Shown: positions 1,411 through 62,321, counted from the stretch's first letter. The stretch: 64,000 nucleotides of DNA from Bacteroidota bacterium (GCA_017303975.1 JAFLBG010000001.1:91988-155987); one strand, 5' to 3'. A program made the numbers and translations. The notes: a model not told the origin generated them from the letters alone.

Positions 1411-1626
1411 TGATATTATTTTTTAACTGGTTAAGTTGCCGCAAAACTATTCTCTTTATAACCACAATTCAAGAAAATGTGATGGGCGTTGTTCTTGGGT
1501 TTTTGCAATTAAGCATTTGGCAATGGTTGACTTTCAGGCAATTGTGAATTAGGGTTGTTCCGATTCTCTATTTTGATTTTCACTATTATATTTGACAGAT
1601 AGTAAGTAAATTTCCAGTAAAACCAA

Positions 1627-13275: not shown

Positions 13276-13635
13276 TCATAAAAATAGCGAAAGAAAATTA
13301 AACCGTAATTAGACAGTAGAAGCTTTTGAAAAAAGCGCACTATCTGTCTTAGTACGGGTAACCCCAACTTAGTATTAGTAAGGTTTCCTTACTTATTCAA
13401 ACCCCTAAAAGCCTTACTAATATTTAGTTGTAGGCAGTTGTATTTCCTAGCTGTCTATTTAGGGTTAAATCAGTTGTATTAAAGTAAGACGGCATGTTTG
13501 GTTAATTATTTCTAAGTAGTCAAAATCACGAAAATGCTTTAGAATACAGATTTATGCAACGGTTTTTATTCCCTAGTTTTAAATACCCAATAGTTTCTAA
13601 TATATTTAACAAATCAAACATTCATATACTTAGTA

Positions 13636-16600: not shown

Positions 16601-17244
16601 AAATGGCAAAGCAAGTGGCTCACGAAATAAAAAATCCGCTTACTCCTATGAAGCTCAATATACAGCACTTGCAGCGAATTCAAAAGGTGAGTAAAGACGA
16701 TTTTGAAAGCAAGTTCGAAAAGATTACAACATCGTTGCTCGAACAAATTGACGCGCTATCTCTTATTGCATCGGCCTTTTCTGATTTTGCGAAAATGCCT
16801 ACTTCTAATCTCGAGAAAATTAATCTAACCGAGCTGCTTATGGGAGCAACCGAGTTGTATAAAAATACTATCGCAATAAACACACATTTTGATAGTAATG
16901 TGGAAATTTTTATTTCAGCAGATAAAATTCAGTTGAGTAGAGCGCTATCTAATATTATAAAGAATGCAACACAAGCGGTTTCCGAGAAGAGAGAGCCCAA
17001 ACTTGATATATACCTAGAAAAGGAATCTGACCGTGTGGTGTTGCAGATAAGAGACAATGGAATTGGCATTTCCGATGAAATGAAACAAAAGATTTTTACC
17101 CCAAACTTTACAACCAAAACAACAGGAATGGGACTAGGGTTGTCTATGGTAAAAAATAGTATTGAAAGTTTTGGTGGTAACATTTGGTTTGAATCAGAGG
17201 TGGATAAGGGTACTACATTTTTTATTACTTTTCCAATGGTTTAA
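13636..17244 (+). CDS. Large polytopic sensor histidine kinase (N-terminal ~1000-aa multi-TM sensor region, C-terminal HisKA + HATPase_c)
   Basis: H-box 'VAHEIKNPLTPMKLNIQHL', N-box 'LSNIIKNATQAV', G-boxes 'IRDNGIGI' and 'GMGLGLSMV'. At least 10 hydrophobic segments precede the kinase core. Confidence 0.8.
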   Translation: MGSRNTYLLILFLALLSFAGAFIAEQKRSVGFKELIENFTTVYHQKEKAQEVELTRFGEQANANYSSESPDWLESLEQNGIYLFRFKNDSCVYWSSNKVQLPTDVLQIPDTLQVLKLQTGYYQLKKRRQNNSTVIISLLLLKREWPHQNEYLQNGFVFDSNIPSGTMLLMQKAPNCIPVVSLSKNTLFYLRFYSSTTTNTALQFTAILLYTLSFLLILRLVIGWLSEIISNPFYFLVLLGSFLIGIALLVNTYRIPKVLFELDFFNPQLFADANSYWLSSMGMVFVNTLLLLLFTYVVNQKLKRATQHTPLFWFLFSVALICLSIFVIDNYLYLIQSFVFNSTAVFQLNNILSWNIYSLLGIFNLLVFLFSIYFFVRATTTSIRYHSKAVYSIASIVIGFCLVLVFADLYFVELSTTLFLVVLLYTIFLYRTRSQITPFAVGLIYIIIFSAYTVYLFERKNSEKEFNNLSSFADKLAEEKDVIAEYLFEEVSNKLSTDTALLGSLTPSTFSRFENVLYANYFGNYWTKYSIKAFAFDSVCYPLHNSLQPELTNNTYFDELIFTNGESTSCDKFFFISKDKEQYYLAKIPLYTSTSNHKPAHLYVKFESRATTENSGFPELLLDKKLILKFDISQYSYAVYKEKKLVANYGKYYYPFLYSSLSDKDYLHFTFSPTPETNVVISKAAVGYISKLSAFSVFFSLSGLVVLLVYFFFLLYTNKAKEIFSTLKWKTQTILALLVFLACTVFAISILGFIKSLNKNEMENSLNQKINSIHKELQHKLGNEFTLDKNYRPYINSILAKYANVFSTDIILYDIKGDLIASSSMAIFEEGLLSDKMNPLAFAQLNKKSASRYIHSEQIGKLTFLSGYIPFKNKSGDDIAYINLPYFAKQKLYDKEIAVYLSTIINIYSVLLVLSVLVSISIANQLTSPLQLIQQKLSTLTLGKKHELIDWIKDDEIGKLVAEYNRTVLELERSAIALAKSERESAWKEMAKQVAHEIKNPLTPMKLNIQHLQRIQKVSKDDFESKFEKITTSLLEQIDALSLIASAFSDFAKMPTSNLEKINLTELLMGATELYKNTIAINTHFDSNVEIFISADKIQLSRALSNIIKNATQAVSEKREPKLDIYLEKESDRVVLQIRDNGIGISDEMKQKIFTPNFTTKTTGMGLGLSMVKNSIESFGGNIWFESEVDKGTTFFITFPMV

Positions 17245-19581: not shown

Positions 19582-19606
19582 TTCTATTTTACATTGAATA
19601 AAAAAA

Positions 19607-19631
19607 GCCTCGCATTTGCGAGGCTTTTTTT
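19607..19631 (+). terminator. Rho-independent terminator
   Basis: GCCTCGCA/TGCGAGGC stem followed by TTTTTTT. It sits inside the 5' extension of the 19594 ORF, which argues for the later start at 19645. Confidence 0.6.
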
Positions 19632-19644
19632 ATATCTTGACTTT

Positions 19645-23898: not shown

Positions 23899-23931
23899 TT
23901 TTGGTGGAATACCTATTTTTAGGTATTTTTG
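23899..23931 (+). promoter_or_regulatory. Candidate Bacteroidetes-type promoter of the suf operon (TTG at -33, TAnnTTTG at -7) with a palindrome in the spacer
   Basis: TTG at 23901-23903. TATTTTTG at 23924-23931, which matches the Bacteroidetes sigma-A -7 consensus TAnnTTTG. 20-nt spacer. The palindrome AATACCT-attttt-AGGTATT (23908-23927) lies between the two elements, about 30 nt upstream of the sufA start. Confidence 0.4.
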
Positions 23932-23960
23932 TATTTAGAATTAATCTAAATAGGGATTTT

Positions 23961-24287
23961 ATGATAACAGTATCAGATAATGCCAAGCAACAGGCACTTC
24001 ATTTAATGAAGCAAGACAATAAGCCCGAAGGTGCTTTTATTCGTGTTGGTGTAGAGGGTGGAGGCTGCTCCGGATTGAGTTATAAGCTTGAATTTGACAC
24101 CGAACTAAAAGAGGGGGATCAACAGTTTGAAGATAAGGGAATAAAAATAGTGGTGGACAAAAAAAGCTTTTTATACTTGGTTGGAACAGAGCTTGATTTT
24201 TCGGGTGGACTAAACGGAAAAGGATTTGTATTTAATAATCCTAATGCATCGAGAACTTGTGGGTGTGGGGAATCGTTTGCAGTATAA
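23961..24287 (+). CDS. sufA: Fe-S cluster insertion protein, HesB/IscA/SufA family
   Basis: 'FIRVGVEGGGCSGLSY...' with the C-terminal 'CGCGESF' motif. The internal Met at 23961 was chosen as start because the upstream extension covers the promoter palindrome. Confidence 0.85.
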   Translation: MITVSDNAKQQALHLMKQDNKPEGAFIRVGVEGGGCSGLSYKLEFDTELKEGDQQFEDKGIKIVVDKKSFLYLVGTELDFSGGLNGKGFVFNNPNASRTCGCGESFAV

Positions 24288-24296
24288 AATAGTTTT

Positions 24297-24776
24297 TTAG
24301 TTCGTTAGTTCACCAGTTTTTAGTAAAAAATGGCAACAATAGATAGGTTTGAAGATTTAATAGCTTGGCAAAAAGCTAAAAAATTGGCACTGGGTGTATA
24401 TACTCTTACAAATGTTGGGATTTTTTCTAAAGACTTTGGATTGCGAGATCAAGTGAGGCGATCTTCTATTTCTGTTGTATCTAATATTGCAGAGGGTTTT
24501 GAACGCAAAGGGAACAGAGAGTTTTTACAATTCTTATATATTTCGTTGGGGTCTTTAGGCGAGTTAAAAACTCAAATTGAAATTGCTTTTGAACTCAACT
24601 ATTTTTCAGAAAACGAATACAAAAATATTTTACCCCAAATAACAGAAGTGAGAAAAATTATAAATGGTTTAATTTCTAGTTTAAAGGATAGTGATTTTAA
24701 GGGAATAAAATTTAAGTATTCATAGTACTCGTAAACTGAAATACTAACAAACTGGCAAACTTGAATACTAGTAAAC
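24297..24776 (+). mobile_element. IR-bounded four-helix-bundle cassette 1 (imperfect ~20-bp inverted repeats)
   Basis: Left arm TTAGTTCGTTAGTTCACCAGTTTTTAGTA (24297-24325). Right arm TACTAACAAACTGGCAAACTTGAATACTAG (24747-24776). The reverse complement of the left arm aligns with the right arm at about 17 of 20 positions (tactaa-aaactgg-..aact). Confidence 0.35.
24330..24725 (+). CDS. Four helix bundle protein (TIGR02436 / PF05635 23S rRNA-intervening-sequence protein family), copy 1
   Basis: 'FEDLIAWQKAKKL...VYTLT...FGLRDQVRRSSISVVSNIAEGFERKGNREFLQFLYISLGSLGELKTQIEIAFEL' matches the family consensus. Confidence 0.85.
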   Translation: MATIDRFEDLIAWQKAKKLALGVYTLTNVGIFSKDFGLRDQVRRSSISVVSNIAEGFERKGNREFLQFLYISLGSLGELKTQIEIAFELNYFSENEYKNILPQITEVRKIINGLISSLKDSDFKGIKFKYS

Positions 24777-24786
24777 AAAAAAACTG

Positions 24787-26238
24787 ATGAACACAACTAT
24801 AGAAGAACACATCTCCTCCGATTATAAATACGGCTGGAGCACAGATATAGAAATGGACAATGCCCCAAAAGGCTTGAGTGAGGATATTGTGCGATTTATT
24901 TCCAAGAAAAAAAACGAACCGGAGTGGTTATTGGAATATAGGTTAAAAGCCTACAAACATTGGCTTACATTAGAAGAGCCACGGTATTGGCCACATTTGA
25001 ATTATCCTAAAATAGATTTTCAAAACATTATATATTACGCGGCACCTAAGCCACAAAAAAAATTAAACAGTCTAGACGAAGTTGATCCGGAACTTTTAAA
25101 AACCTTCGAAAAGCTTGGTATATCGCTCGAAGAACAAAAACGTATTTCTGGTGTAGAATCTAAAATTGCTGTAGATGCAGTAATTGATAGTGTTTCGGTA
25201 AAAACTACATTTAAAGAAACGTTAGCAGAGAAAGGAATTATTTTCTGCTCCTTCAGTGAGGCTGTGCACGAGCACCCGGAATTGATTAAACAATACATGG
25301 GCACTGTAGTGCCTTATACAGATAATTATTATGCAGCATTAAACTCTGCTGTTTTTAGCGATGGCTCGTTTTGTTATATACCAAAAGGAGTTCGTTGCCC
25401 AATGGAACTATCAACTTACTTTAGAATTAACTCAGCCGGTACCGGCCAATTTGAAAGGACGTTGTTAGTTGCCGATGAAGGTGCTTACGTTAGCTACTTG
25501 GAAGGCTGCACTGCTCCTATGCGCGATGAAAATCAGTTGCACGCTGCGGTGGTAGAAATTGTAGCTCATAAAAATGGAGAAGTAAAATACAGCACCGTTC
25601 AAAACTGGTACCCGGGCGACAAAGAGGGCAAGGGTGGTATTTACAATTTTGTAACCAAGCGTGGAATTTGTTTAGGAGATAATTCTAAAATTTCTTGGAC
25701 ACAAGTTGAAACCGGCTCTGCCATTACTTGGAAATACCCAAGTGTAATTTTAAAAGGAAATAATTCGGTTGGTGAGTTTTATTCGGTGGCTGTTACAAAC
25801 AACTACCAGCAAGCAGATACAGGCACCAAGATGATTCACTTAGGAAAAAACACTCGCAGCACCATTATATCAAAAGGAATTTCCGCAGGCTTTAGTAATA
25901 ATAGTTATAGAGGATTAGTGCGTGTAGCAAAAGGTGCCACCAATGCACGAAATTTTTCTCAATGTGATTCCTTGCTAATGGGCGACAAATGCGGAGCACA
26001 CACATTTCCGTACATTGAAATAAAAGATAAATCAGGCATAGTAGAGCACGAAGCTACTACTTCAAAAATTGGAGAAGATCAATTGTTTTATTGCAAACAA
26101 CGTGGAATTGACACAGAGAAAGCCATAGGACTTATTGTAAACGGCTATTGCAAAGAAGTTTTTAATCAGTTGCCTATGGAATTTGCGGTGGAAGCACAGA
26201 AATTATTAGCGGTTTCACTAGAAGGGTCTGTGGGATAA
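24787..26238 (+). CDS. sufB: Fe-S cluster assembly protein SufB
   Basis: 483 aa with SufB-characteristic blocks throughout. Confidence 0.95.
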
Positions 26239-26246
26239 AAAGTTAT

Positions 26247-26728
26247 AAAGTTTAAAGTTGGAAAGTTTGAAATCAAATAATATTAATGGCAACAATAGAA
26301 CGATTTGAGGATTTAAAAGTTTGGCAAAAAGCACGACAGCTGAACAAAGAAATATATAAAGTATCTAATACGGGTGCTTTTTCAAAAGATTTTGGATTAC
26401 GCGATCAAATAAGACGTTCAAGTATTTCTATCGTATCTAATATTGCTGAGGGTTATGAAAGAAATGGTACTAAAGAATTCAACCAGTTTTTATCAATAGC
26501 AAAGGCTTCTGCGGCAGAATTAAGAGCGCAGCTTTATGTTTCCTTTGATTTAGAATATATTTCTGAACAAGAATTTAATACCCTAATCTCTATTGTTCTT
26601 GAGGTTAGCAAAATGCTTTCCGGATTAATGAGTTATTTACAAACAACCGAAATAAAAGGGAATAAATTTAAAGAAAGTGCTGAATTGTATGGTACGAATC
26701 AACTTTAAACTTTCCAACTTTAAACTTT
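26247..26728 (+). mobile_element. IR-bounded four-helix-bundle cassette 2 (perfect 22-bp inverted repeats)
   Basis: AAAGTTTAAAGTTGGAAAGTTT at 26247-26268 is the exact reverse complement of AAACTTTCCAACTTTAAACTTT at 26707-26728. The arms enclose the whole 4HB gene. The right arm starts within the stop codon and abuts the sufC start. Confidence 0.5.
26286..26708 (+). CDS. Four helix bundle protein (TIGR02436 / PF05635 family), copy 2
   Basis: 'FEDLKVWQKARQL...IYKVS...FGLRDQIRRSSISIVSNIAEGYERNGTKEFNQFLSIAKASAAELRAQLYVSFDL'. Confidence 0.85.
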   Translation: MATIERFEDLKVWQKARQLNKEIYKVSNTGAFSKDFGLRDQIRRSSISIVSNIAEGYERNGTKEFNQFLSIAKASAAELRAQLYVSFDLEYISEQEFNTLISIVLEVSKMLSGLMSYLQTTEIKGNKFKESAELYGTNQL

Positions 26729-26733
26729 AAACT

Positions 26734-27480
26734 ATGTTGACTATAAAAAACCTACACGCAGGAATCGAAGACAAAGAAATTCTAAAAGGATTTTCATTAA
26801 ATGTTAAACCTGGAGAAGTTCATGCAATCATGGGTCCTAATGGATCGGGAAAAAGTACATTGGCTAGTGTGCTTGCAGGACGCGAAGATTATACCGTTAC
26901 CGATGGAGAAGTAACTTTTAAAAACAAGAACTTATTGGAGTTATCTCCTGAAGATAGAGCAAGAGAAGGCGTGTTTCTTGCATTTCAATATCCAATAGAG
27001 ATTCCTGGTGTAAGCAATATCAATTTTTTAAAGACGGCCATTAACGAAATTCGTGCGTACAAAGGCATGGAAGCAATGGAAGCAAAAGACTTTTTAAAAT
27101 TGGTAAAGGAAAAGCAAGCCATGGTGGAGTTACAAGGCACGCTGGCAAACCGCAGTGTTAACGAAGGTTTTAGCGGGGGAGAGAAAAAACGAAACGAAAT
27201 TTTTCAAATGGCCATGCTGGAGCCAAGCTTAGCTATACTTGATGAAACTGACTCCGGACTTGACATTGACGCTTTGCGTATTGTAGCCAGCGGTGTAAAT
27301 AAATTACGCAACAAAGACAGATCGTTTATTGTTATTACGCACTACCAACGTTTACTAGATTATATAGTTCCTGACTTTGTGCATGTAATGTATCAAGGAA
27401 AAATTGTAAAATCAGGTGGAAAAGAATTAGCGCTAGAGCTGGAGAAAAACGGATACGATTGGGTGAAGGAGTTAGTTTAA
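26734..27480 (+). CDS. sufC: Fe-S cluster assembly ATPase SufC
   Basis: Walker A 'GPNGSGKST', ABC signature 'FSGGEKKR', Walker B 'LAILDETDSGLD'. Confidence 0.95.
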   Translation: MLTIKNLHAGIEDKEILKGFSLNVKPGEVHAIMGPNGSGKSTLASVLAGREDYTVTDGEVTFKNKNLLELSPEDRAREGVFLAFQYPIEIPGVSNINFLKTAINEIRAYKGMEAMEAKDFLKLVKEKQAMVELQGTLANRSVNEGFSGGEKKRNEIFQMAMLEPSLAILDETDSGLDIDALRIVASGVNKLRNKDRSFIVITHYQRLLDYIVPDFVHVMYQGKIVKSGGKELALELEKNGYDWVKELV

Positions 27481-27663
27481 AGTTAGAAAGTCAAATTCTC
27501 CCCTTGAGAGCTTGTCCGCCTCTGGCGGAGGAGATATAGAGGGGTGTGTAGGGGAAATTGTGCGGTTTTAAATGTTTAATAGATTAACAACTTAATATCA
27601 CAAATTGTGACATGAAGTTGAATTACTAACAACAAAGAACTTTGAACAAAGAATTAATTTATA
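27481..27663 (+). repeat. 183-bp sufC-sufD spacer: degenerate IR-bounded element containing a GC-rich REP-like hairpin core
   Basis: Left AAAGTTAGAAAGT (27482-27494) and right AAGAACTTTGAACAAAG (27638-27654) are in inverted orientation and belong to the same AAAGTT heptamer family. The core at 27488-27545 (..CCGCCTCTGGCGG.. GAGGGGTGTGTAGGGGAA) is an inverted, diverged copy of the 70-bp GC-rich repeat at 28984 and 29875. It also holds the palindrome TCACAAATTGTGA (27613-27625). Confidence 0.4.
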
Positions 27664-28983
27664 ATGAACACAACCATAAAAACAAACATACCAACAGCAC
27701 TTTTAAGCTATCTTGAAAGTACCGCTGCAACACACGCCAATCAATCATTTCGAACCCAAGCGCTTGATAGCTTGTTAAACCAAGGGTTGCCTAACAAAAA
27801 AAGTGAAGAATATAAATATTCTCCGGTAGAAAAATTCTTCAAAGAGTTAAACTTTAGTTCAAAAGGAAATTCGCCTAATGCAGACATATTCAAAACCCTT
27901 AATTATCCTAAGCTACGAGGAGTCGAAGTTTTTGCAATTAATGGAATTATTGTGGCGTCTAGTCACACTGAGCCTGTCGAAGTGTCTGGGAGTACTATTA
28001 AAATCCAATCCCTAAAACAAGCGATGTTAGAAAACAATAAAATCGCAGATACATATCTCGGTCAACTTTCTTCCAAAAACCAAGACCCTTTCATTGCCTT
28101 AAACAATGCAGCTTTTGAAGATGGTATATTTATTCATCTGGAAAAGAACGCAATAGTAGAAGAGCCAATTCACATTATCAATTACGTTACCTCCCAAGAA
28201 AACTGTTTAATTCAACCGCATCATTTATTTGTATTTGAAGAAAACTCTCAAACCACAATTATTGAAACTACTATAATTAAAGGTAGTAGCGTTGGCTTTG
28301 TTTATAATAGTTTGGTGGAAATGCAAGCAGCAGAAAATTCTAAAATAAATTATTATCGCTTGCAGCTGGGATCTAAGTCGGATGATACTAAAAAAGCTGC
28401 AGTATTTAACACACAAATAAATCAAGAGAAAAATTCTACCGTAGATACTAATACAATTACCATCAATACTTCTTGGTTACGCAATAATCATAACATTGTT
28501 TTAAATGGTACCAATTGTGAAGCACATTTAAACGGTTTGTTTTTAATAAACAACCATCAGCACGTTGATAATCACACCTTGGTTGACCACCAGCAACCGC
28601 ATTGCCAAAGCAATCAGTTGTACAAAGGAATTTTAAGTGATAAGTCGACCGGAATATTCAATGGAAAAATATTTGTTCGCAAGGATGCACAAAAAACAAA
28701 TGCATATCAATCAAGCAAAAATATTTTGTTGAGTGACGATGCTACAATCAATGCAAAACCACAATTAGAAATTTATGCCGATGATGTAAAGTGTTCGCAC
28801 GGTTCATCAACAGGCAAGATTGACACGGATGCCCTGTTTTACTTACGTGCACGGGGAGTTGGCGAAGAATCCGCCAGAAGGCTCTTATTACATGCTTTTG
28901 CAAATGATGTGATTGAAACTATAAAAAACGAAGAGTTGCAAATGACTATTAAAGAAATTATAGAAAAGCAACTTTATGTATAA
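27664..28983 (+). CDS. sufD: Fe-S cluster assembly protein SufD
   Basis: 439 aa with SufB/SufD-family C-terminal beta-helix motifs ('ILLSDDATINAKPQLEIYADDVKCSHGSSTGKID'). Confidence 0.9.
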   Translation: MNTTIKTNIPTALLSYLESTAATHANQSFRTQALDSLLNQGLPNKKSEEYKYSPVEKFFKELNFSSKGNSPNADIFKTLNYPKLRGVEVFAINGIIVASSHTEPVEVSGSTIKIQSLKQAMLENNKIADTYLGQLSSKNQDPFIALNNAAFEDGIFIHLEKNAIVEEPIHIINYVTSQENCLIQPHHLFVFEENSQTTIIETTIIKGSSVGFVYNSLVEMQAAENSKINYYRLQLGSKSDDTKKAAVFNTQINQEKNSTVDTNTITINTSWLRNNHNIVLNGTNCEAHLNGLFLINNHQHVDNHTLVDHQQPHCQSNQLYKGILSDKSTGIFNGKIFVRKDAQKTNAYQSSKNILLSDDATINAKPQLEIYADDVKCSHGSSTGKIDTDALFYLRARGVGEESARRLLLHAFANDVIETIKNEELQMTIKEIIEKQLYV

Positions 28984-29056
28984 ACACACCCCTAGCCCCT
29001 CTCAAGAGGGGAACCTACGCACACTTCCCTACTTGAGGAGGAATTATGGAGGTGTA
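28984..29056 (+). repeat. GC-rich ~72-bp REP-like repeat, copy A (two GC hairpins)
   Basis: ACACACCCCTAGCCCCTCTCAAGAGGGGAACCTACGCACACTTCCCTACTTGAGGAGG...GGAGGTGTA. It contains hairpins CCCCTCT-ca-AGAGGGG and a TCCCT.C-ttga-GGAGG stem. About 90% identical to copy B at 29875..29946. A 3' half-copy lies at 29476..29506. Confidence 0.7.
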
Positions 29057-29093
29057 CCACAAGAGTGCAATTATATAAACAACAAATTGGATA

Positions 29094-29507
29094 ATGTTTG
29101 ACATCTGGCACATAGCTATTCCTGTAACTAATATAGAAGAATCCATTTCTTTCTATTGCGATTTTCTTGGCTTCATTTTTATTGGAACCGATGAGAATCA
29201 CAACAAAAAGCAAGCTTTTATTAAAACTCCTGGTGGTAATATGTCTATCGAATTATTTATTGAAAGCAACAGCATTAACAAAAAAATGCCCGATCATATT
29301 GCTTTTGAGTGCGATGATATTGAAACCTACATTAATAAATTAAAAAGCAAAAACGCAACTATTCCTACGCACCTTAATTCTTATGATAATGGTGTTCGCT
29401 TTTTTTCCTTGATAGATCCACAGGGTATTCCTTTGCATTTTTTTAAAGGAAGAAAACTTTATGAAGATTCATTAATTCCCTCCTTGAGGAGGGCCAGGGA
29501 GGTGTAA
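29094..29507 (+). CDS. VOC family protein (glyoxalase/bleomycin-resistance/dioxygenase fold)
   Basis: 'WHIAIPVTNIEESISFYCDFLGF' at the N-terminus and 'DHIAFECDDIETYINKL' fit VOC. The C-terminal 'SLRRAREV*' is encoded by the half-repeat. Confidence 0.65.
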   Translation: MFDIWHIAIPVTNIEESISFYCDFLGFIFIGTDENHNKKQAFIKTPGGNMSIELFIESNSINKKMPDHIAFECDDIETYINKLKSKNATIPTHLNSYDNGVRFFSLIDPQGIPLHFFKGRKLYEDSLIPSLRRAREV

Positions 29508-29512
29508 ATAAT

Positions 29513-29947
29513 ATGAAACATAAATTTATTACATATAACCCAAAACTAAAAGAACTCGCTCGTAGGTTGCGCAACAATAGCACAAAGTCTGAGATTAAGC
29601 TATGGAACTATTTAAAAGGCGATAAATTACTAGGGTATGACTTTCACCGACAAAAGCCTATTGGTAATTATATTTGTGATTTCTTTTGTAAAGAATTAAT
29701 GTTGGCTATTGAGGTGGATGGCTATTCACATACACTAGAAGATGTACAAAAAAAAGATATTGAAAAGCAGAAGTATCTTGAAAGTCTAAACATTACTATT
29801 CTTAGATTTACGGATACAGAAATTTTTGAACAGATTGATAACGTTATTAGAAAAATAGAGCATTGGGTGAGAGAACACACCCCTAGCCCCTCTCAAGAGG
29901 TGAACCTACGCACTTCCCTCCTTGAGGAGGGACTAAGGGAGGTGTAA
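29513..29947 (+). CDS. DUF559 endonuclease-domain protein (Vsr-like PD-(D/E)xK family)
   Basis: 'ARRLRNNSTKSEIKLWNYLKGDKLLGYDFHRQKPIGNYICDFFCKELMLAIEVDGYSH' is the DUF559 signature. The C-terminal 24 aa are translated from repeat copy B. Confidence 0.85.
   Translation: MKHKFITYNPKLKELARRLRNNSTKSEIKLWNYLKGDKLLGYDFHRQKPIGNYICDFFCKELMLAIEVDGYSHTLEDVQKKDIEKQKYLESLNITILRFTDTEIFEQIDNVIRKIEHWVREHTPSPSQEVNLRTSLLEEGLREV
29875..29946 (+). repeat. GC-rich ~72-bp REP-like repeat, copy B
   Basis: Direct repeat of 28984..29056 at about 90% identity. With copy A it brackets the VOC + DUF559 pair. Confidence 0.7.
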
Positions 29948-29968
29948 AATTAAATTAATACTAAAGAG

Positions 29969-31186
29969 TTGTACAACATAACTAACATAAGCGACCAATT
30001 CCCAATACTTTCAGAGAAGGTAAATGGCAAACCATTGGTTTATTTGGACAATGCCGCCACTGTTCAAAAACCAAAACAAGTTATTGATGCTATTGTAAAT
30101 TACTATACACACACCAACGCAAATATTCACAGAGGTGTTCATACGTTGAGTCAAAAAGCTACAGATGCTTATGAGCAAGCACGAAAAAAAGTAGCTGACT
30201 TTATTGGTGCCTCAACTAACGAAATAGTATTTACGCGTGGTACCACAGAATCAATAAATTTAGTTGCGGAAACCTTCGGAAAAAAATTTATTTCAGCAGG
30301 AGATGAAATTGTAATTACAGAAATGGAGCATCACAGTAATATTTTGCCTTGGCAAAAATTATGTGAAGAAAAAGGGGCAAAATTAATTGTTGCACCAATC
30401 AACAACTCTGGAGAATTGATGCTCAATGAATTTGAAAAATTACTCTCCCTAAAAGCCAAGTTGATTGCAATTACCCATGTATCAAACACATTGGGGACAA
30501 TTAATCCAATAAAAAAAATAATAGAATTAGCTCATTCCAAAAATATATTTGTTCTTATAGATGGTGCACAGGCTGTGCCACACCTAAAAGTAAATGTAAA
30601 AGAGCTTGATGCCGATTTCTATTGCTTTAGTGGACACAAGATGTACGCACCTACGGGAATTGGTGCATTGTATATAAAAGAAAAGTGGTTGGCTCAATTG
30701 CCCACTTATCAGATTGGTGGTGGTGTTATAAAAACGGTTTCGTTTACCAAAACAGAATATATAGATGGACCTTTAAAATACGAAGCTGGTACTCCCAATA
30801 TTGCCGGTGCCATAGGACTTAGTGCAGCTATAGATTTTATGAATGAAATTGGTATTGAAACCATTCAGCATCATGAAGAAAAGTTGCTGCGTTATGCAAC
30901 AGAACAAATAACGCAACTGGAAAAAATAAAAATTATTGGGACAGCGACTGAAAAAGCTGGTGTGCTATCCTTCATTGTGGAAGGAGCACATCCATTCGAT
31001 GTTGGAACACTGTTAGATAAAATGGGTATTGCTGTTCGTACGGGACACCACTGCACACAACCCTTGATGGAAAAATATAAAATTCAAGGTACCGTGCGCG
31101 CTTCCTTTGCTTGTTATAATACCATTGAGGAAATAGATGTATTTTTGGAGGGATTAAAAAAGACGATTAGGATGTTAGTTGGGTAA
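29969..31186 (+). CDS. sufS: Cysteine desulfurase SufS (class V aminotransferase)
   Basis: 'FSGHKMYAPTGIGALY' PLP-lysine region and 'RTGHHCTQPLM' active-site Cys loop. Confidence 0.95.
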   Translation: MYNITNISDQFPILSEKVNGKPLVYLDNAATVQKPKQVIDAIVNYYTHTNANIHRGVHTLSQKATDAYEQARKKVADFIGASTNEIVFTRGTTESINLVAETFGKKFISAGDEIVITEMEHHSNILPWQKLCEEKGAKLIVAPINNSGELMLNEFEKLLSLKAKLIAITHVSNTLGTINPIKKIIELAHSKNIFVLIDGAQAVPHLKVNVKELDADFYCFSGHKMYAPTGIGALYIKEKWLAQLPTYQIGGGVIKTVSFTKTEYIDGPLKYEAGTPNIAGAIGLSAAIDFMNEIGIETIQHHEEKLLRYATEQITQLEKIKIIGTATEKAGVLSFIVEGAHPFDVGTLLDKMGIAVRTGHHCTQPLMEKYKIQGTVRASFACYNTIEEIDVFLEGLKKTIRMLVG

Positions 31187-31198
31187 TAAAAGGTGGGT

Positions 31199-31652
31199 GA
31201 TTGACTAGTCCGATAGTCTGTTAGTCAATTAGTCAGAAAGCTTACAGTAAATGAATTATGGCAACGATACAAAAATTTGAAGATATTGTAGCTTGGCAAA
31301 AGGCGAGGGAATTAAATAAGCGGATTTATTTGCTTACAACCAACTCTGCGATTGCAAAGGATTATGGATTACGCGACCAAATGAGAAGATGTTCAATTTC
31401 TGTGATGTCGAATATTGCAGAAGGATTTGAAAGAACCGGAGATAAAGAGTTTGCAAGATTTTTGAGCATTGCGATGGGATCGTGTGCCGAATTAAAGTCA
31501 CAACTTTATGCAGCACTGGATGTTGGATTTATAACTGAAATGGAATTTAATTCAGTTGTTATTCTCGTTGATGAAACTGGAAAGTTAATACAATCATTCA
31601 GAAAATATTTACGACTAACAGACTAGCGGACTTTTTAACTAACAGACTATAA
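31199..31652 (+). mobile_element. IR-bounded four-helix-bundle cassette 3 (19/20-bp inverted repeats, duplicated arm motif)
   Basis: AGTCCGATAGTCTGTTAGTC (31207-31226) pairs with GACTAACAGACTAGCGGACT (31613-31632), matching at 19 of 20 positions. A second unit, TAACTAACAGACTAT (about 31637-31651), pairs with ATAGTCTGTTAGTCA. The arms bracket the 4HB gene between the sufS stop and the sufE start. Confidence 0.5.
31258..31626 (+). CDS. Four helix bundle protein (TIGR02436 / PF05635 family), copy 3
   Basis: 'FEDIVAWQKARELNKRIYLLT...YGLRDQMRRCSISVMSNIAEGFERTGDKEFARFLSIAMGSCAELKSQLYAALDV'. Confidence 0.85.
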   Translation: MATIQKFEDIVAWQKARELNKRIYLLTTNSAIAKDYGLRDQMRRCSISVMSNIAEGFERTGDKEFARFLSIAMGSCAELKSQLYAALDVGFITEMEFNSVVILVDETGKLIQSFRKYLRLTD

Positions 31653-32084
31653 ATGACAATAAGCGCCATAGAAAAAGAAATTATAGACGAGTTTTCCTTA
31701 TTTGATAATGACTGGGAAAGTAAGTACGAGCACCTTATCGATTTAGGGAAGTCTCTTCCGTTAATTAACGAAAAGTACAAAACAGAAGATAGGCTTATAA
31801 AAGGCTGTCAAAGTCGTGTTTGGCTTCATTCAGAATTGAAAAATGATACTATTGTGTTCACCGCAGACAGTGACGCTATCATAACTAAGGGTATTGTAGC
31901 ACTTTTGATTCGTGTGTTGTCAAACCAAACTTCTGAAAATATTATAAATGCAAAGTTAGACTTTATAGATAAAATTGGATTGAAAGAGCACCTCTCACCT
32001 ACACGAGCCAATGGTTTGGTTAGTATGATAAAACAAATGAAACTGGATGCAATAATCCTAAAACAAAATGAAAATGAAGAATAA
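31653..32084 (+). CDS. sufE: SufE family cysteine desulfuration (sulfur acceptor) protein
   Basis: 'LIKGCQSRVWLHSEL...IFTADSDAIITKGIVALL' carries the conserved Cys of SufE. Confidence 0.85.
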   Translation: MTISAIEKEIIDEFSLFDNDWESKYEHLIDLGKSLPLINEKYKTEDRLIKGCQSRVWLHSELKNDTIVFTADSDAIITKGIVALLIRVLSNQTSENIINAKLDFIDKIGLKEHLSPTRANGLVSMIKQMKLDAIILKQNENEE

Positions 32085-44666: not shown

Positions 44667-46739
44667 TTATCTTATTGTTGAACCGTTTTGTATATCGCTT
44701 TTCTCGGGCGATACAAAACACAGAGATCCATCACTATTCTCCGCCATTAAAATCATGCCTTGCGATTCTATTCCTTTTATTTTGCGAGGTGCAAGGTTTA
44801 TTAGGATGCTTACCTTTTTTCCAATAATTTCCTCTGGTTTGTAGTGCTCTGCAATACCCGATACTACTATACGTTGATCGATACCGGTATCAATTTTTAA
44901 TTTCAACAATTTATCTGCTTTTGGAACTTTTTCTGCCTCTAGAATAGTTCCTACACGAATATCCATTTTGCTAAACTCATCGAAAGTAACTTCCGGCTTT
45001 GCAGCCTCAATCAACTTGGTAGTTGCAGCATTCATTTTTTTTGATTCTTCTAATTTATTTATTTGTGCCTCTACTAATGGGTCTTCTACCTTTTCAAATA
45101 GTAATGCTGCGGGTTGAATAACATGCCCTTCTTTTAGCAAGTCAATAGCTCCAGTGCCACTCCATAAAACACCAGACATATTAAGCATTTTCGATAATTT
45201 ACTCGCTGTAAAAGGCAAGAATGGCTCCATTAACACAGAGAGATTAGCACATGTTTGCAGTGAAATGTGCAATATTGCTTTTACTTTTTCCGGCTCTGTT
45301 GCTTGCAGTTTCCAGGGTTCGGTATCTGCCAAAAATTTATTTCCAATACGCGCCAAATTCATAAGTTCTGTAAGTGCTTCCCGAAATTTAAAGTTCTCTA
45401 TTGCAGTAGCAATTTTTACGGGAACATCTTTTATCTGATCGATAATAGATTTATATTCACTTTCATAACCAGCCATCGAAGGTACTTTCCCGTCATAGTA
45501 TTTATGGGTAAGGACAATAGTTCTGTTTACGAAATTTCCAAGTATAGCAACTAATTCACTGTTGTTTTTTAATTGAAAATCTTTCCATGTAAAATCATTA
45601 TCCTTTGTTTCCGGCATGTTGGAGCATAGGGTGTAACGCAGTACATCTTGCTTGTCTTTAAAATCAAGCAAATATTCATGTAACCAAACAGCCCAATTGC
45701 GAGAGGTGGAGATTTTATCGCCTTCTAAATTCAAAAATTCATTAGCCGGCACATTATCTGCTAACACATACTCTCCATGCGCCATGAGCATAGCAGGAAA
45801 AATAATACAGTGAAAAACAATATTGTCTTTCCCAATAAAATGAACCAATTTAGTTTCCTTATCCTTCCAGTACAGCTCCCAATTGGAAAGTTTATTAGAA
45901 CTTTGAACTTTAAACTTTGAACTTTCAAAGTACTCCTTAGTAGCGGAAATATATCCAATAGGTGCGTCAAACCAAACATACAGCACTTTTCCTTCTGCAT
46001 CTTTTACAGGCACTTTTACACCCCAATCCAAATCACGCGTCATAGCGCGAGGCTGTAACCCTTGATTTAACCACGATTTACACTGCCCATACACATTGGT
46101 TTTCCAGTCTTTGTGAGAATCAATATAGCTTTCAATGTCTGGTTGCATTTTATCTAATGGCAAAAACCAATTTTTTGTTTTTTTCAAAACCGGCTTTTCT
46201 CCACTTAATGTAGAACGCGGGTTTATTAAATCAGTTGGGTTTAAAGAACTGCCGCACTTTTCACACTGATCGCCATAGGCGTTCTCATTACTACATTTGG
46301 GGCAAGTGCCAACAATGTATCTATCTGCCAAAAACTGATTGGCTTTTTCATCAAAGTATTGTTCTGTTACTTCTTCTGTAAATATTTTTTTATCATACAA
46401 ATTTTTAAAAAACTCGGAAGCGGTCTCGTGATGAATCTTTGCAGATGTACGCGAATAGGTGTCGAAAGAAATTCCAAACTCAGCAAAAGCATCCCCCATT
46501 ATCTTGTGGTACTTGTCCACCACTTGCTGCGGAGTTATATCCTCTTTCTTTGCCTTAATGGTAATAGGTACACCATGTTCGTCTGAACCGCAAATAAAAA
46601 GCACGTCTTTACCAATAGCTCGTAAATAACGCACATAAATATCGGCCGGTAAATAGCATCCCGCCAAATGACCAATATGAACCGGTCCATTTGCATAAGG
46701 CAACGCTGCTGTAATTAAATATCGTTTAGGGTTTTGCAT
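44667..46739 (-). CDS. metG: Methionine--tRNA ligase
   Basis: 'HIGH' (PVHIGHLAG), 'KMSKS', Zn-knuckle cysteines and a C-terminal tRNA-binding domain. It also contains an unusual heptamer-repeat insertion (see findings). Confidence 0.95.
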
Positions 46740-46809
46740 AATAGCCACAAATTACGAAATATGTTACAGGCACTGAAGAACTTTGTTCGAAAAAATTTAA
46801 CTTGCGTAT

Positions 46810-59010: not shown

Positions 59011-60339
59011 ATGGATACCCTTAAAGAAAAATTTGTAGCAAAAGCTACACCAATGGCAGCTGAGGTTAAAGCCTTAATTAAAGAACATGGTGATGTTAAA
59101 CTTGGAGAATATACTGTAGCTCAAGTTTATCAAGGGATGAAGGGGATGATAGGACTAGTAACCGAAACGTCTAAGTTAGATGCAGAAGAAGGTATTCGCT
59201 TTAGAGGATACACCATTCCTGAGTTGCGCGAGAAGCTGCCAAAAGCTCCCGGAGGTACAGAACCATTGCCGGAAGGGATTTTTCATTTAATGTTATTGGG
59301 TGAACTACCAACAGAAGAAGATGTTCACAATGTGAGTAATAACTGGGCTCGCAGAGCGATTGTTCCAAAACACGTGTTTGACGTATTAGATAAATTACCC
59401 GCAAACATGCATCCTATGACTATGTTTAGCATTGCAGTAACTGCCATGCAAACAGAATCATTATTTGCAGCAGCATACAGAAAAGGCGTAAATAAAAAAG
59501 AATATTGGGACCACACCTACGAAGATTCTATGAATTTAATTGCACGCCTACCAAGGGTTGCGGCTTATATTTATAGAAAAAAATACAAAGATGATGTGCA
59601 TATTGAACCAGATCCTAAATTAGATTGGGCTGCAAACCTTGCTCACATGATGGGTTACGAAGAGTTTAATGTAAAACGTTTGATGCGCATGTACATGACT
59701 ATCCATGCGGATCACGAGGGTGGAAACGTTTCTGCGCACACTACACACTTAGTTGGCTCTGCATTGAGCGACCCATATTTATCTTTTGCATCCGGAATGA
59801 ATGGATTGGCGGGACCTTTGCATGGTTTGGCAAATCAAGAGGTAATAAAATGGATTTTGGATATGCGCAAAGAGCTAGGTGTTGATCTACCAACCGAAAA
59901 GCAAATTGCAGATTATATACACAAAACATTAGTCGAAGGAAAAGTTGTACCAGGCTACGGACATGCGGTATTGCGAAAAACAGATCCTCGTTTTTCTGCA
60001 CAACAAGATTTTTATAATAGATACATTAAAGAAGGTGGAAAAGGAGATGATTTGTGTGAAATAGTACAAATGATTTACAAAGTTGCTCCTCCTATTTTAG
60101 AATCTACCGGAAAAATTAAAAACCCATGGCCTAATGTAGATGCGCATTCCGGAGCATTATTAATGCACTACGGAATTGTAGAATTTGATTTCTACACCGT
60201 ATTGTTTGGTGTTTCAAGAGCATTAGGAGTATTAGCGTCTTTAATTTGGGACAGAGCATTGGGTCATCCAATTGAACGTCCAGGATCGGTTACTACCGAA
60301 GGAATTAAGAAGAAGATTGCAGCTGCTGTAAAACAATAA
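59011..60339 (+). CDS. gltA: Citrate synthase
   Basis: 'GYGHAVLRKTDPR' signature with His/Asp catalytic blocks. 442 aa. Confidence 0.93.
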   Translation: MDTLKEKFVAKATPMAAEVKALIKEHGDVKLGEYTVAQVYQGMKGMIGLVTETSKLDAEEGIRFRGYTIPELREKLPKAPGGTEPLPEGIFHLMLLGELPTEEDVHNVSNNWARRAIVPKHVFDVLDKLPANMHPMTMFSIAVTAMQTESLFAAAYRKGVNKKEYWDHTYEDSMNLIARLPRVAAYIYRKKYKDDVHIEPDPKLDWAANLAHMMGYEEFNVKRLMRMYMTIHADHEGGNVSAHTTHLVGSALSDPYLSFASGMNGLAGPLHGLANQEVIKWILDMRKELGVDLPTEKQIADYIHKTLVEGKVVPGYGHAVLRKTDPRFSAQQDFYNRYIKEGGKGDDLCEIVQMIYKVAPPILESTGKIKNPWPNVDAHSGALLMHYGIVEFDFYTVLFGVSRALGVLASLIWDRALGHPIERPGSVTTEGIKKKIAAAVKQ

Positions 60340-60348
60340 CAATAGTTT

Positions 60349-60425
60349 GAAGGTTATAAAGTTGAAAAGTTTGAAAGTTGTTCTTTACTTTAAACTTTCT
60401 AAACTTTCCGATTTTAAACTAACGT
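60349..60425 (+). repeat. Solo palindromic element of the AAAGTTT-heptamer family (IR arms adjacent, no cargo)
   Basis: Left GGTTATAAAGTTGAAAAGTTTGAAAGTTG. 7-nt loop. Right CTTTAAACTTTCTAAACTTTCC. Arm complementarity is about 17 of 20. The left arm is about 80% identical to the left IR arm of 4HB cassette 2 (26241-26273). It fills the whole gltA-to-UbiD-like spacer. Confidence 0.6.
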
Positions 60426-62321
60426 ATGTATAAATCCTTACAACACTTTGTAGATGCGCTTGAAAAAGCAGGCGAATTAATTCGCATCAAAGAATATGTA
60501 AATCCGCATTTAGAAATTACAGAGATTGTAGATCGTATTTCCAAATCGGAAAACAATAAAGCGCTGCTATTCGAAAACACAGGCACCTCATTTCCGTTGC
60601 TTATCAATTCCATGGGTTCATACAAGCGCATGTGTATTGCACTTGGGGTAAACGAACTAGATGACATAGCAAAAGAAATCGAGGGATTATTCAAATCGTT
60701 GGCATCACCGAAAGAAGGAATTCTAGATAAACTGAAGATGCTTCCAATGCTTGGTGAAATATCGTCTTGGATGCCCAAAACTATTTCAGGAAAAGGAGCA
60801 TGTCAAGAAGTGGTGATGGAAAAACCTGATTTGACAAAACTACCCGTAATGAAATGCTGGCCGGAAGATGGCGGTCCATTTATTACATTACCCGTTATCA
60901 ATACCATTGAGCCCAATACCGGAATACGAAATGTAGGAATGTATCGTATGCAAATTTTTGGTCCTGCATTAACCGGAATGCATTGGCATAAACACAAAGT
61001 ATCCGCAGGACATTTCAATGAATATAAAAAACTGGGCAAGAAAATGCCTGTAGCTGTTGCTCTTGGGGGCGACCCTGTTTATACGTATGCCGCTACAGCT
61101 CCACTTCCTCCTAATGTGGACGAATACATGCTTGCGGGCTTCTTACGAAAAAGGAAAGTAGAATTGGTAAAGTGTTTAACACAAGATATACATGTTCCGG
61201 CTGATGCCGATTTTATTATTGAAGGCTATGTAGATCCTGCAGATGAATTAATTTGGGAGGGGCCATTCGGAGACCACACCGGCTATTATTCCCTGGCGGA
61301 TTACTATCCAAAATTTCATGTTACATGTATTACACATAAAAAGAATGCTATTTATCCATCTACCATTGTTGGTATTCCTCCGCAAGAAGATGCTTGGATA
61401 GGTAAAGCAACAGAACGTATTTTTTTGGCTCCTATAAAAATGACATTGGTGCCTGAAATACTAGATATGGAGCTGCCTATAGAAGGAGTGTTTCACAACC
61501 TCACGATTGTTAAAATAAAAAAAGAATTTCCAGGTCACGCACAAAAAGTGATGAATGCCATGTGGGGTGCAGGACAGATGATGTTCAATAAAATTTTGGT
61601 AATTGTAGATGAGCATGTAACGATTCAAAATTATTTGGATGTAGCGCAAGCAATAAGTAAAAATGTAAATCCATCTTCTGATATCTATTTGGGCCAAGGA
61701 CCAATGGATGTGCTTGATCACTCTTGTTCTAAATTTGCATTTGGCGGGAAAATGGGAATAGATGCTACAACGAAATTTCCAGAAGAAATTTCTAAGTCCG
61801 AAATCCTAATTTCTAAATCCGAAATAAATACTAAAGAAATTAAAAATAAATATTCAGAAATAATAGATATTAATGTAACGCTTGCCAATATTGGAGTTTT
61901 AGCTGTTTTAATTTCTGTAAAAAAGAATAAGAAAAAGCATATTAAATGGCTGAATGAAGAATTGTTTAAGTTGGAAGAGTTTAAGCAATTTAAGTTTGCG
62001 ATTTATGTAGAGGAAACTGTAGATGCTTTTGATATAAAAGATGTTATTTGGCGCTGGGCAAATAATATAGACGCGCGTAGAGACACCTACATTATTGAAA
62101 CAGAAACAACATCACATGTAGGTTTTGATGGAACTCGTAAAACAAAAGAGCTAGATAATTTTGATCGTGATTGGCCTAATATTATATGTTCTGACGAAGC
62201 TACTATAAAAGCAATTGACGAAAAATGGAATACATTGGGACTAGGAACCTTTGTTTTCTCTCCCTCCATAAAATACCAAAAGCAGATGTACAAAGGTGGA
62301 GCGGTGGTAACAGAAAACTAA
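60426..62321 (+). CDS. UbiD-family (menaquinone-biosynthesis-type) decarboxylase with a long C-terminal extension
   Basis: 'GPFITLP...GMYRMQ...GGDPV' UbiD core of about 490 aa, then a further ~140 aa. Contains a 21-nt tandem duplication (ISKSEIL/ISKSEIN). Confidence 0.8.
   Translation: MYKSLQHFVDALEKAGELIRIKEYVNPHLEITEIVDRISKSENNKALLFENTGTSFPLLINSMGSYKRMCIALGVNELDDIAKEIEGLFKSLASPKEGILDKLKMLPMLGEISSWMPKTISGKGACQEVVMEKPDLTKLPVMKCWPEDGGPFITLPVINTIEPNTGIRNVGMYRMQIFGPALTGMHWHKHKVSAGHFNEYKKLGKKMPVAVALGGDPVYTYAATAPLPPNVDEYMLAGFLRKRKVELVKCLTQDIHVPADADFIIEGYVDPADELIWEGPFGDHTGYYSLADYYPKFHVTCITHKKNAIYPSTIVGIPPQEDAWIGKATERIFLAPIKMTLVPEILDMELPIEGVFHNLTIVKIKKEFPGHAQKVMNAMWGAGQMMFNKILVIVDEHVTIQNYLDVAQAISKNVNPSSDIYLGQGPMDVLDHSCSKFAFGGKMGIDATTKFPEEISKSEILISKSEINTKEIKNKYSEIIDINVTLANIGVLAVLISVKKNKKKHIKWLNEELFKLEEFKQFKFAIYVEETVDAFDIKDVIWRWANNIDARRDTYIIETETTSHVGFDGTRKTKELDNFDRDWPNIICSDEATIKAIDEKWNTLGLGTFVFSPSIKYQKQMYKGGAVVTEN

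Follow-up and report, generated by a model that had tools for sequence, protein, structure and literature searches.

A gene-less palindrome of AAAGTT-type units between gltA and ubiD shares its repeat unit with the flanks of a four-helix-bundle cassette in a Bacteroidota suf operon

The genes for citrate synthase (gltA) and a UbiD-family menaquinone-biosynthesis decarboxylase (ubiD) are neighbours in the stretch of Bacteroidota DNA analysed here (64,000 nucleotides; hereafter the window), which belongs to a genome with a G+C content of about 36%. The ORF list and family scans place the stop codon of gltA at 60337-60339 and the ATG of ubiD at 60426. An earlier note on this DNA had described the 86-bp spacer between them as a palindrome built from AAAGTT-type units, which is borne out by the coordinates (Table 1), the predicted fold, and the enrichment of the repeat motif in the window. 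The UbiD protein encoded downstream (60426-62321) comprises 631 amino acids, compared to the 433 positions of the TIGR03701 model; its C-terminal extension of about 190 residues is conserved and lies 3' of a variable linker that carries heptamer arrays in relatives.

Table 1. Features of the window and of the gltA|ubiD junction in related loci.
Feature	Position	Strand	Remarks
gltA (citrate synthase)	59011..60339	+	Upstream neighbour; TIGR01793 / PF00285
UbiD-family menaquinone-biosynthesis decarboxylase	60426..62321	+	Downstream neighbour; TIGR03701 / PF01977
Whole gltA-ubiD intercistronic spacer	60340..60425	+	86 nt; ORF list, family scans, sequence
Hairpin 5' arm	60352..60379	+	Four AAAGTTn-type units; inverted-repeat search, TRF, RNA fold
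Hairpin loop	60380..60392	+	13 nt, TTCTTTACTTTAA in the minimum-free-energy fold; no ORF trace; RNA fold
Hairpin 3' arm	60393..60420	+	nAACTTT-type units; ends 5 nt before the ubiD ATG; RNA fold
4HB1	24330-24725		sufA|sufB; TTAGTTn units; inverted repeat of 29 nt, 72%
4HB2 left AAAGTTn array	26239..26273	+	26-30-nt inverted repeat, 96% complementary
4HB2 gene (PF05635 / TIGR02436)	26286..26708	+	sufB|sufC; stop codon inside the first right-arm unit
4HB2 right nAACTTT array	26700..26733	+	Abuts the sufC ATG
4HB3	31258-31626		sufS|sufE; TTAGTCn units; inverted repeat of 20 nt, 95%
sufC|sufD spacer family member, degenerate	27470..27647	+	AAAGTT-type array (27470-27492) paired to AGAACTTTGAAC (27636-27647)
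metG in-frame family member	45885..45931	-	47 nt: four AAAGTTn units, loop, one AACTTT unit; metG at 44667-46748
Junction in L084, L086			Stop/start overlap TAATG
Junction in L088	2976-3003		Exact 14-nt tandem duplication, AAAGTAATGCCCTT twice, across gltA stop and ubiD start
Junction in L082, L021, L081			GC-rich hairpin + T-run terminators
Junction in L087, L119			Unrelated spacers
Junction in L168 (best UbiD among the matches listed, 79%)	1481-1983		128-aa DUF559 gene; perfect 26-nt inverted repeat ACCCCTAAATCCCCTAAAGGGGACTT

The left side of the hairpin consists of the units AAGGTTAT (60350-60357), AAAGTTGA (60358-60365), AAAGTTTG (60366-60373), and AAAGTTGT (60374-60381); the right side is made up of the inverse units CTTTAAACTTTCTAAACTTTCC at 60388-60409, followed by GATTTTAAACTAACGT. 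At the DNA level, the best inverted repeats are 21 nt long with a gap of 8 nt (76% complementary) or 27 nt long with a gap of 13 nt (70%). The sense RNA is predicted to form 26 pairs (18 A-U, 5 G-C, and 3 G-U) between 60352-60379 and 60393-60420, which results in an A/U-rich stem with two bulges and a loop of 13 nt. The fold of the sense strand (-19.7 kcal/mol, z = -3.5) was equalled in only 1 of 200 shuffles and is 6 kcal/mol better than that of the antisense strand (-13.4 kcal/mol, z = -2.3) because of the G-U pairs. The hairpin of the earlier note is therefore real, but its dimensions (arms of 22 nt and a loop of 7 nt) were only approximate, both arms and loop being somewhat longer. The same applies to the term "heptamer": the repeat array exists, but TRF detects periods of 8 and 9 nt, so the units are 7-9 nt long rather than strictly 7 nt.

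The motif AAAGTTKRAAAGTT (with at most one mismatch) occurs five times in the 64 kb of the window, compared to an expectation of 0.74, and five occurrences were reached in none of 100 shuffles; four of the five are located in the gltA-ubiD hairpin or in the flanks of the 4HB2 gene described below. The hairpin sequence is identical in an independent Logan assembly (L001), and among the matches listed, the exact GltA sequence occurs in only one other contig, which is itself identical. The two arms are adjacent, as the earlier note had observed: there is no ORF between them in the ORF list, and tblastn detected no remnant of a four-helix-bundle (4HB) gene in the 13-nt loop. An intrinsic terminator was considered and rejected, since the hairpin is not called by the terminator scan, has only 5 G-C among its 26 pairs, and is followed by the tail CGAUUUUAAAC, which has no U-tract. 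A search of Rfam returned nothing at gathering score, only sub-threshold matches to generic hairpins. The hairpin was also not called by a sigma-70 promoter scan, and inspection by eye for promoter motifs of the Bacteroidetes type found none that is convincing.

The same type of repeat unit flanks a protein-coding gene elsewhere in the window. Searches with tblastn and HMM scans identified three genes of the PF05635 / TIGR02436 four-helix-bundle family, all of them in the suf operon of the window. The proteins encoded by 4HB1 and 4HB3 are about 54% identical to that of 4HB2, and each gene is enclosed by inverted arrays of its own unit type. Terminal stems of 25-30 bp are predicted for the cassettes; the arms of 4HB2 form a 30-bp stem around the entire ORF in both the minimum-free-energy and the centroid RNA fold (z = -3.5), and those of 4HB3 fold likewise (z = -2.4). 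A strong stem is not universal among cassettes, since the long-range stem predicted for 4HB1 is weak (z = -0.5). The suf operon (23901-32084) hosts one DUF559 gene in addition to the three 4HB genes.

In its best register, the left arm of the gltA-ubiD hairpin is identical to the left flank of 4HB2 at 22 of 24 positions; for the right arm, the value is 29 of 36, including an exact run of 13 nt (ACTTTAAACTTTC). As both are arrays of one unit, they can be aligned in several registers. What stands of the likeness to the cassette flank reported in the earlier note is therefore a shared unit type, but not collinear homology. A degenerate member of the family occupies the sufC|sufD spacer (27470-27663; 184 nt), where outer AAAGTT/AACTTT pairing surrounds an inner, GC-rich hairpin of the CCCCT/AGGGG type (z = -2.6); it looks like a set of nested or decayed elements. 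Including a copy in metG, the window thus contains four loci with AAAGTT-type units (gltA|ubiD, the 4HB2 arms, sufC|sufD, and metG). A second solo palindrome, with TTAGTA-type units and a 21-bp stem (z = -3.8), is present at 13365-13430 within a 360-nt region upstream of a long ORF (13636-17244); its unit resembles that of the 4HB1 and 4HB3 arms. A further hairpin, CCCCTCTCAAGAGGGG, is located just 3' of sufD (28996-29011) and is of the CCCCT/AGGGG type that also occurs at the flanks of DUF559 cassettes in relatives.

Gene-less copies of the palindrome are not restricted to the gltA-ubiD spacer. The array in metG is in frame and encodes the peptide SSKFKVQSS in a surface loop of MetRS, exactly where solved MetRS structures have a gap of 7 or 13 residues. 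This loop is hypervariable: across 120 homologues with identities of 82-87%, it varies by 0-30 residues and comprises many sequence types. A complete in-frame hairpin of the AAGTTC type is present in the same loop of L173, likely the closest relative among the matches listed; the JGI sample from which it derives also yielded L168, whose UbiD is the most similar among these matches. In-frame heptamer arrays also occur in two variable linkers of ubiD in relatives; those of L084 (4372-4423) and L082 are of the AAAGTT type and encode the same SSKFKVQSS peptide as the metG array of the window. At such in-frame sites a cassette is never tolerable, which implies that hairpins arise or insert without a cassette precursor. 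The array in metG resembles the colonization of an essential gene by Rickettsia palindromic elements (RPE).

Other loci preserve cassettes in apparent stages of decay. In L069 (6100-6330), the 4HB gene is internally deleted, with about 45 N-terminal codons retained between AAAGTT-type arms. Directly after a full cassette at sufA|sufB, L164 carries a second 4HB copy in tandem (2924-3072), which is truncated at the 5' end and has a right arm of its own; at the same junction, L162 has only a short solo AAAGTT/AACTTT remnant. The number and register of the units vary strongly among hairpin copies, and the AAAGTT type is not the only core. In about 1.2 Mb of related loci, a generic detector identified inverted arrays with the cores TAATTGT, GTGAA, GATAAT, GTTGA, TAAGGT, TAACTGA, and GAGTT, some of which fold very stably (z = -7 to -9). 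AAAGTT-like cores are the commonest among the solo hairpins of relatives (about 4 of 14), so a shared unit by itself argues only modestly for a specific tie to 4HB genes. In L135 (4278-4622) and L144 (3200-3532), inverted GAGTT and AACTC arrays enclose a conserved part of the ubiD coding sequence, about 300 nt long. This arrangement cannot be produced by simple insertion and keeps an in-place origin by slippage or template switching alive.

The arms of the cassettes travel with the protein clade. The genomic contexts of five 4HB2 homologues from other Bacteroidota (62-84% identical to 4HB2) comprise three different junctions, namely sufB|sufC (L162 and L165), sufA|sufB (L164), and sufS|sufE (L177 and L184). 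All five have AAAGTY-type arms, and in most of them the stop codon lies within the first right-arm unit. AAAGTT-type units are present in all seven cassettes or relics of the 4HB2 clade (the window, L069, and the five homologues), whereas the 4HB3 gene of the window, although located at sufS|sufE like the cassettes of L177 and L184, carries TTAGTC arms. The type of arm tracks the protein clade and not the insertion site. Both the embedded stop codon and the constancy of the arms across junctions imply that ORF and arms are inherited together as one unit, which has resided at different junctions.

The 4HB2 gene is an old resident of the sufB|sufC junction under purifying selection. The identity of 4HB2 to its orthologues (84, 70, and 73%) tracks that of SufB (87-89%) and SufC (82-85%), and the comparison with L162 yields a pN/pS of 0.15, so relocation must be rare. 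This qualifies the impression of mobility conveyed by the earlier note: the cassette has changed junctions and the gltA-ubiD hairpin is lineage-specific, but 4HB2 diverged together with its host genes. All 4HB2-clade cassettes, both in the window and in the five homologue contexts retrieved, are located in suf operons, a pattern that may stem from a role tied to Fe-S assembly or from these operons being a favoured safe harbour. Heptamer arms are lacking in two distant 4HB homologues from viruses, which were inspected for signs of phage carriage.

The gltA|ubiD junction itself was compared among 10 relatives with the same gene order (among the matches listed). None of them has an AAAGTT hairpin at this position, and no 4HB gene is present at the junction in relatives among the matches listed. 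In a tree based on GltA and the first 440 residues of UbiD, the window is nested in a clade that includes L082, L168, and L084/L086/L088. The absence of the hairpin from all syntenic relatives indicates that it is specific to the lineage of the window and that the junction is not a conserved target. The presence/absence comparison proposed in the earlier note thus reveals a difference in 10 of 10 cases, albeit not at the strain level, as the syntenic relatives are only 72-86% identical over the GltA and UbiD residues used for the tree. The polarity of the change at the junction is inferred, since the nearest genome among the matches listed has amino acid identities of only 87% (GltA) and 79% (UbiD). 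When aligned, the gltA-ubiD spacers of the window and L082 share no more than an AAACTTT run that resembles a right arm and precedes the ATG, which does not establish homology.

The gltA|ubiD junction is a hot spot for small cassettes, and its structure differs considerably among relatives (Table 1). The tandem duplication in L088 could be the footprint of an excision or insertion, or the result of simple slippage. Genes of the DUF559 family (Vsr-like endonucleases) behave as a second type of cargo: besides the copy at the junction in L168, there is one between CCCCTCC..GGAGGGG palindromes in L024 (8014-8467) and one in the window (29513-29947), which lies within the suf operon and has a glyoxalase gene and sufS as its neighbours. 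Long inverted repeats were also observed in L029 (3813-4395; 63 nt, at least 88%), where one arm lies in gltA and the structure may be an artefact of MAG assembly, and in L111 (3543-3815; 50 nt, 88% or better).

On balance, we lean towards reading the hairpin as a copy of the AAAGTT palindrome without a gene, which arrived in the lineage of the window and is neutralized after transcription. The heptamer-array palindrome would be a short, dispersed, and insertion-prone module that also provides the terminal stem of the 4HB2-clade (S23p / PF05635) cassettes. Its arrival at gltA|ubiD would date to the lineage of the window, and it would represent neither an ancestral feature nor a landing pad. 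The hairpin is probably transcribed as part of a putative gltA-ubiD co-transcript, whose sense strand is predicted to fold into the A/U-rich stem of 26 bp. The match to the architecture of the 23S rRNA intervening sequences (IVS) and the data on RNase III and Correia elements suggest that this stem may act as a processing site or as a stabilizer of the 3' end. By analogy with the S23p-bearing IVS and the Correia elements, the most likely consequence would be processing by the double-strand-specific RNase III, which would part the two cistrons and leave the stem at the 3' end of gltA; alternatively, the stem may serve as a 3'-end stabilizing structure on the co-transcript. Either selfish or near-neutral, the element would be tolerated by being neutralized at the RNA level.

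The reading as a cargo-less, MITE-like derivative, which had been raised in the earlier note, gains qualified support from the decay intermediates and the gene-less copies. No transposase or recombinase was found, and the 4HB proteins lack domains of the nuclease, transposase, or reverse-transcriptase type; inspection of the solo hairpin and seven cassettes by eye revealed no consistent direct repeat, with the relatives being too distant for a base-level comparison. Because gene-less copies arise or insert on their own, an independent insertion without a gene ranks above the loss of a 4HB gene in situ as the route of arrival and appears about twice as likely.

Loss in situ would mean that a complete 4HB cassette once resided between gltA and ubiD and that deletion of the gene left its arms back to back. 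Decay intermediates such as the internal deletion in L069 and the truncated copy in L164 are consistent with such a process, as is the solo remnant of L162 at a junction where both L164 and the window have cassettes. The junction is also a hot spot for small-gene cassettes, as illustrated by the DUF559 cassette of L168, and AATCAA is present at both inner arm edges of 4HB2, so that a deletion between the two would give a hairpin of this kind. However, the 13-nt loop contains no 4HB remnant detectable by tblastn, no relative among the matches listed has a 4HB gene at gltA|ubiD, and every 4HB2-clade cassette found sits in a suf operon, whereas the gene-less copies in metG and ubiD are hairpins without a cassette precursor; we therefore regard a relic in situ as possible but unlikely. 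A regulatory RNA that evolved in the host genome, formed in place by slippage or template switching and serving as an mRNA stabilizer, attenuator, or processing site with only a convergent likeness to the cassette arms, is more doubtful still. It would agree with the better fold of the sense strand, the presence of terminators at the same place in L021, L081, and L082, the local 14-nt tandem duplication at gltA|ubiD in L088, and the many unrelated array cores in relatives, including the arms around 300 nt of conserved ubiD in L135 and L144. Nevertheless, the hairpin would be a non-canonical terminator (5 of 26 pairs G-C, no U-tract, missed by the terminator scan) in a genome that has canonical GC-rich ones (e.g., at 19598-19633). 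It has no match in Rfam and is absent from all syntenic relatives, and the 64 kb of the window contain four unrelated loci with the AAAGTT unit.

According to the other reading offered in the earlier note, the spacer would be an empty target site, and the 4HB gene would insert into the loop of pre-existing palindromes, much as IS200/IS605 elements or introns that target hairpins do. Topologically, each cassette indeed consists of arms with a gene in the "loop", and the sufC|sufD spacer resembles an AAAGTT hairpin with a GC-rich hairpin nested inside. Yet the empty junctions of relatives have no palindrome (in L084 and L086, gltA and ubiD even overlap in TAATG), the arm type tracks the protein clade over three junctions, the 4HB stop codon is embedded in the arm, and the 4HB proteins are devoid of nuclease, transposase, or reverse-transcriptase domains. 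With the palindrome missing at the junction of 10 relatives and the arms following the protein clade, this reading is disfavoured as very improbable. Chance can be dismissed almost entirely: low G+C content (about 36%) and a complementarity of the arms of only 70-76% as DNA would be expected of A/T-rich, low-complexity sequence without biological identity, but not the excess of the motif (5 versus 0.74 expected, with 5 reached in 0 of 100 shuffles), the stability of the fold (z = -3.5), or the recurrence of AAAGTT-type units at cassettes and in relatives.

A broader reading is speculative, and we consider it rather unlikely. Inverted heptamer-array hairpins would then be the spreading module of an undescribed, transposase-free class of Bacteroidota elements. 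Their sites of insertion would be stop/start junctions and the surface loops of proteins, where they might escape selection via removal by RNase III or via in-frame translation. The genes that they carry (Avd-like 4HB proteins and DUF559 Vsr-like endonucleases) would be helpers that recognize their own arms; such recognition would account for the correspondence of arm type to protein clade, and the 23S rRNA IVS would be the subset that resides in rRNA.

Several known systems share individual features with the gene-less copy at gltA|ubiD. Like the Correia and ERIC MITEs, it is a small palindrome (<300 bp) with terminal inverted repeats that is intercistronic, foldable, lineage-specific in its presence, and dispersed (here at four loci in 64 kb), and presumably co-transcribed with its neighbours. 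Correia elements form palindromes in intercistronic mRNA; RNase III cleaves or binds them, and they affect how stable the flanking mRNA is (PMC2649163, PMC10969869). Unlike those MITEs, the element in the window has neither a conserved core nor a transposase-bearing parent, the only cargo with AAAGTT ends being the 4HB protein, and its arms are arrays of 7-9-nt units of variable copy number instead of fixed terminal inverted repeats. The copies in metG and in the ubiD of relatives resemble RPE (PMC10969869), which are likewise located in frame in housekeeping genes and translated as surface-loop insertions; RPE are, however, about 150 nt long and belong to another phylum, whereas the copies here measure 40-80 nt, are based on repeat arrays, and are linked to 4HB cargo. 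As regards genome annotation, such hairpins may fill intercistronic gaps, mimic terminators, or give rise to length-variable peptide loops in essential enzymes (MetRS and UbiD). Tandem heptamers in the intergenic regions of operons also characterize the STRR heptanucleotide repeats of cyanobacteria, reportedly described by Mazel and colleagues in 1990. To our knowledge, these repeats show neither an inverted arrangement nor a link to 4HB genes.

The closest resemblance in architecture is to the IVS of 23S rRNA. The IVS of Coxiella carries an S23p ORF together with tandem heptamers that vary in number among strains; RNase III excises it by cutting within its terminal stem of 28 bp (PMC4990558). 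The elements described here have in common with the IVS the terminal inverted repeats with a stem of 25-30 bp (26 bp in the solo hairpin), the tandem heptameric repeats of variable number in the 5' part (TRF periods of 7-9 in the present case), and the existence of forms with a PF05635 ORF as cargo (Coxiella, Leptospira) next to a short, ORF-less form (Salmonella type). They differ in that the gltA-ubiD hairpin has no PF05635 ORF, although the three suf cassettes have one. Whereas IVS reside in helix 9, 25, or 45, the elements of the window, which contains no rRNA, lie between the genes of mRNA operons. The units also differ (GACAGAT in Coxiella, AAAGTTn here), and the ORF of the Coxiella IVS is decaying, whereas the 4HB ORFs are under purifying selection. 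Cleavage within the stem is documented for the Coxiella IVS (PMC4990558) and predicted by analogy for the window. In the literature searched (for PF05635, TIGR02436, STRR, HEPN, and inverted repeats), there is no description of 4HB heptamer cassettes outside rRNA, nor of the wider phenomenon to which the hairpin may be an entry point. If the interpretation holds, an element type known only as 23S rRNA IVS also colonizes ordinary operons, with and without a gene. This would offer a concrete handle on the origin of IVS, which is considered still unclear (PMC4990558), and a route to the role of the PF05635 / Avd-like four-helix-bundle proteins, which are under purifying selection here and encoded in suf operons in every case retrieved.
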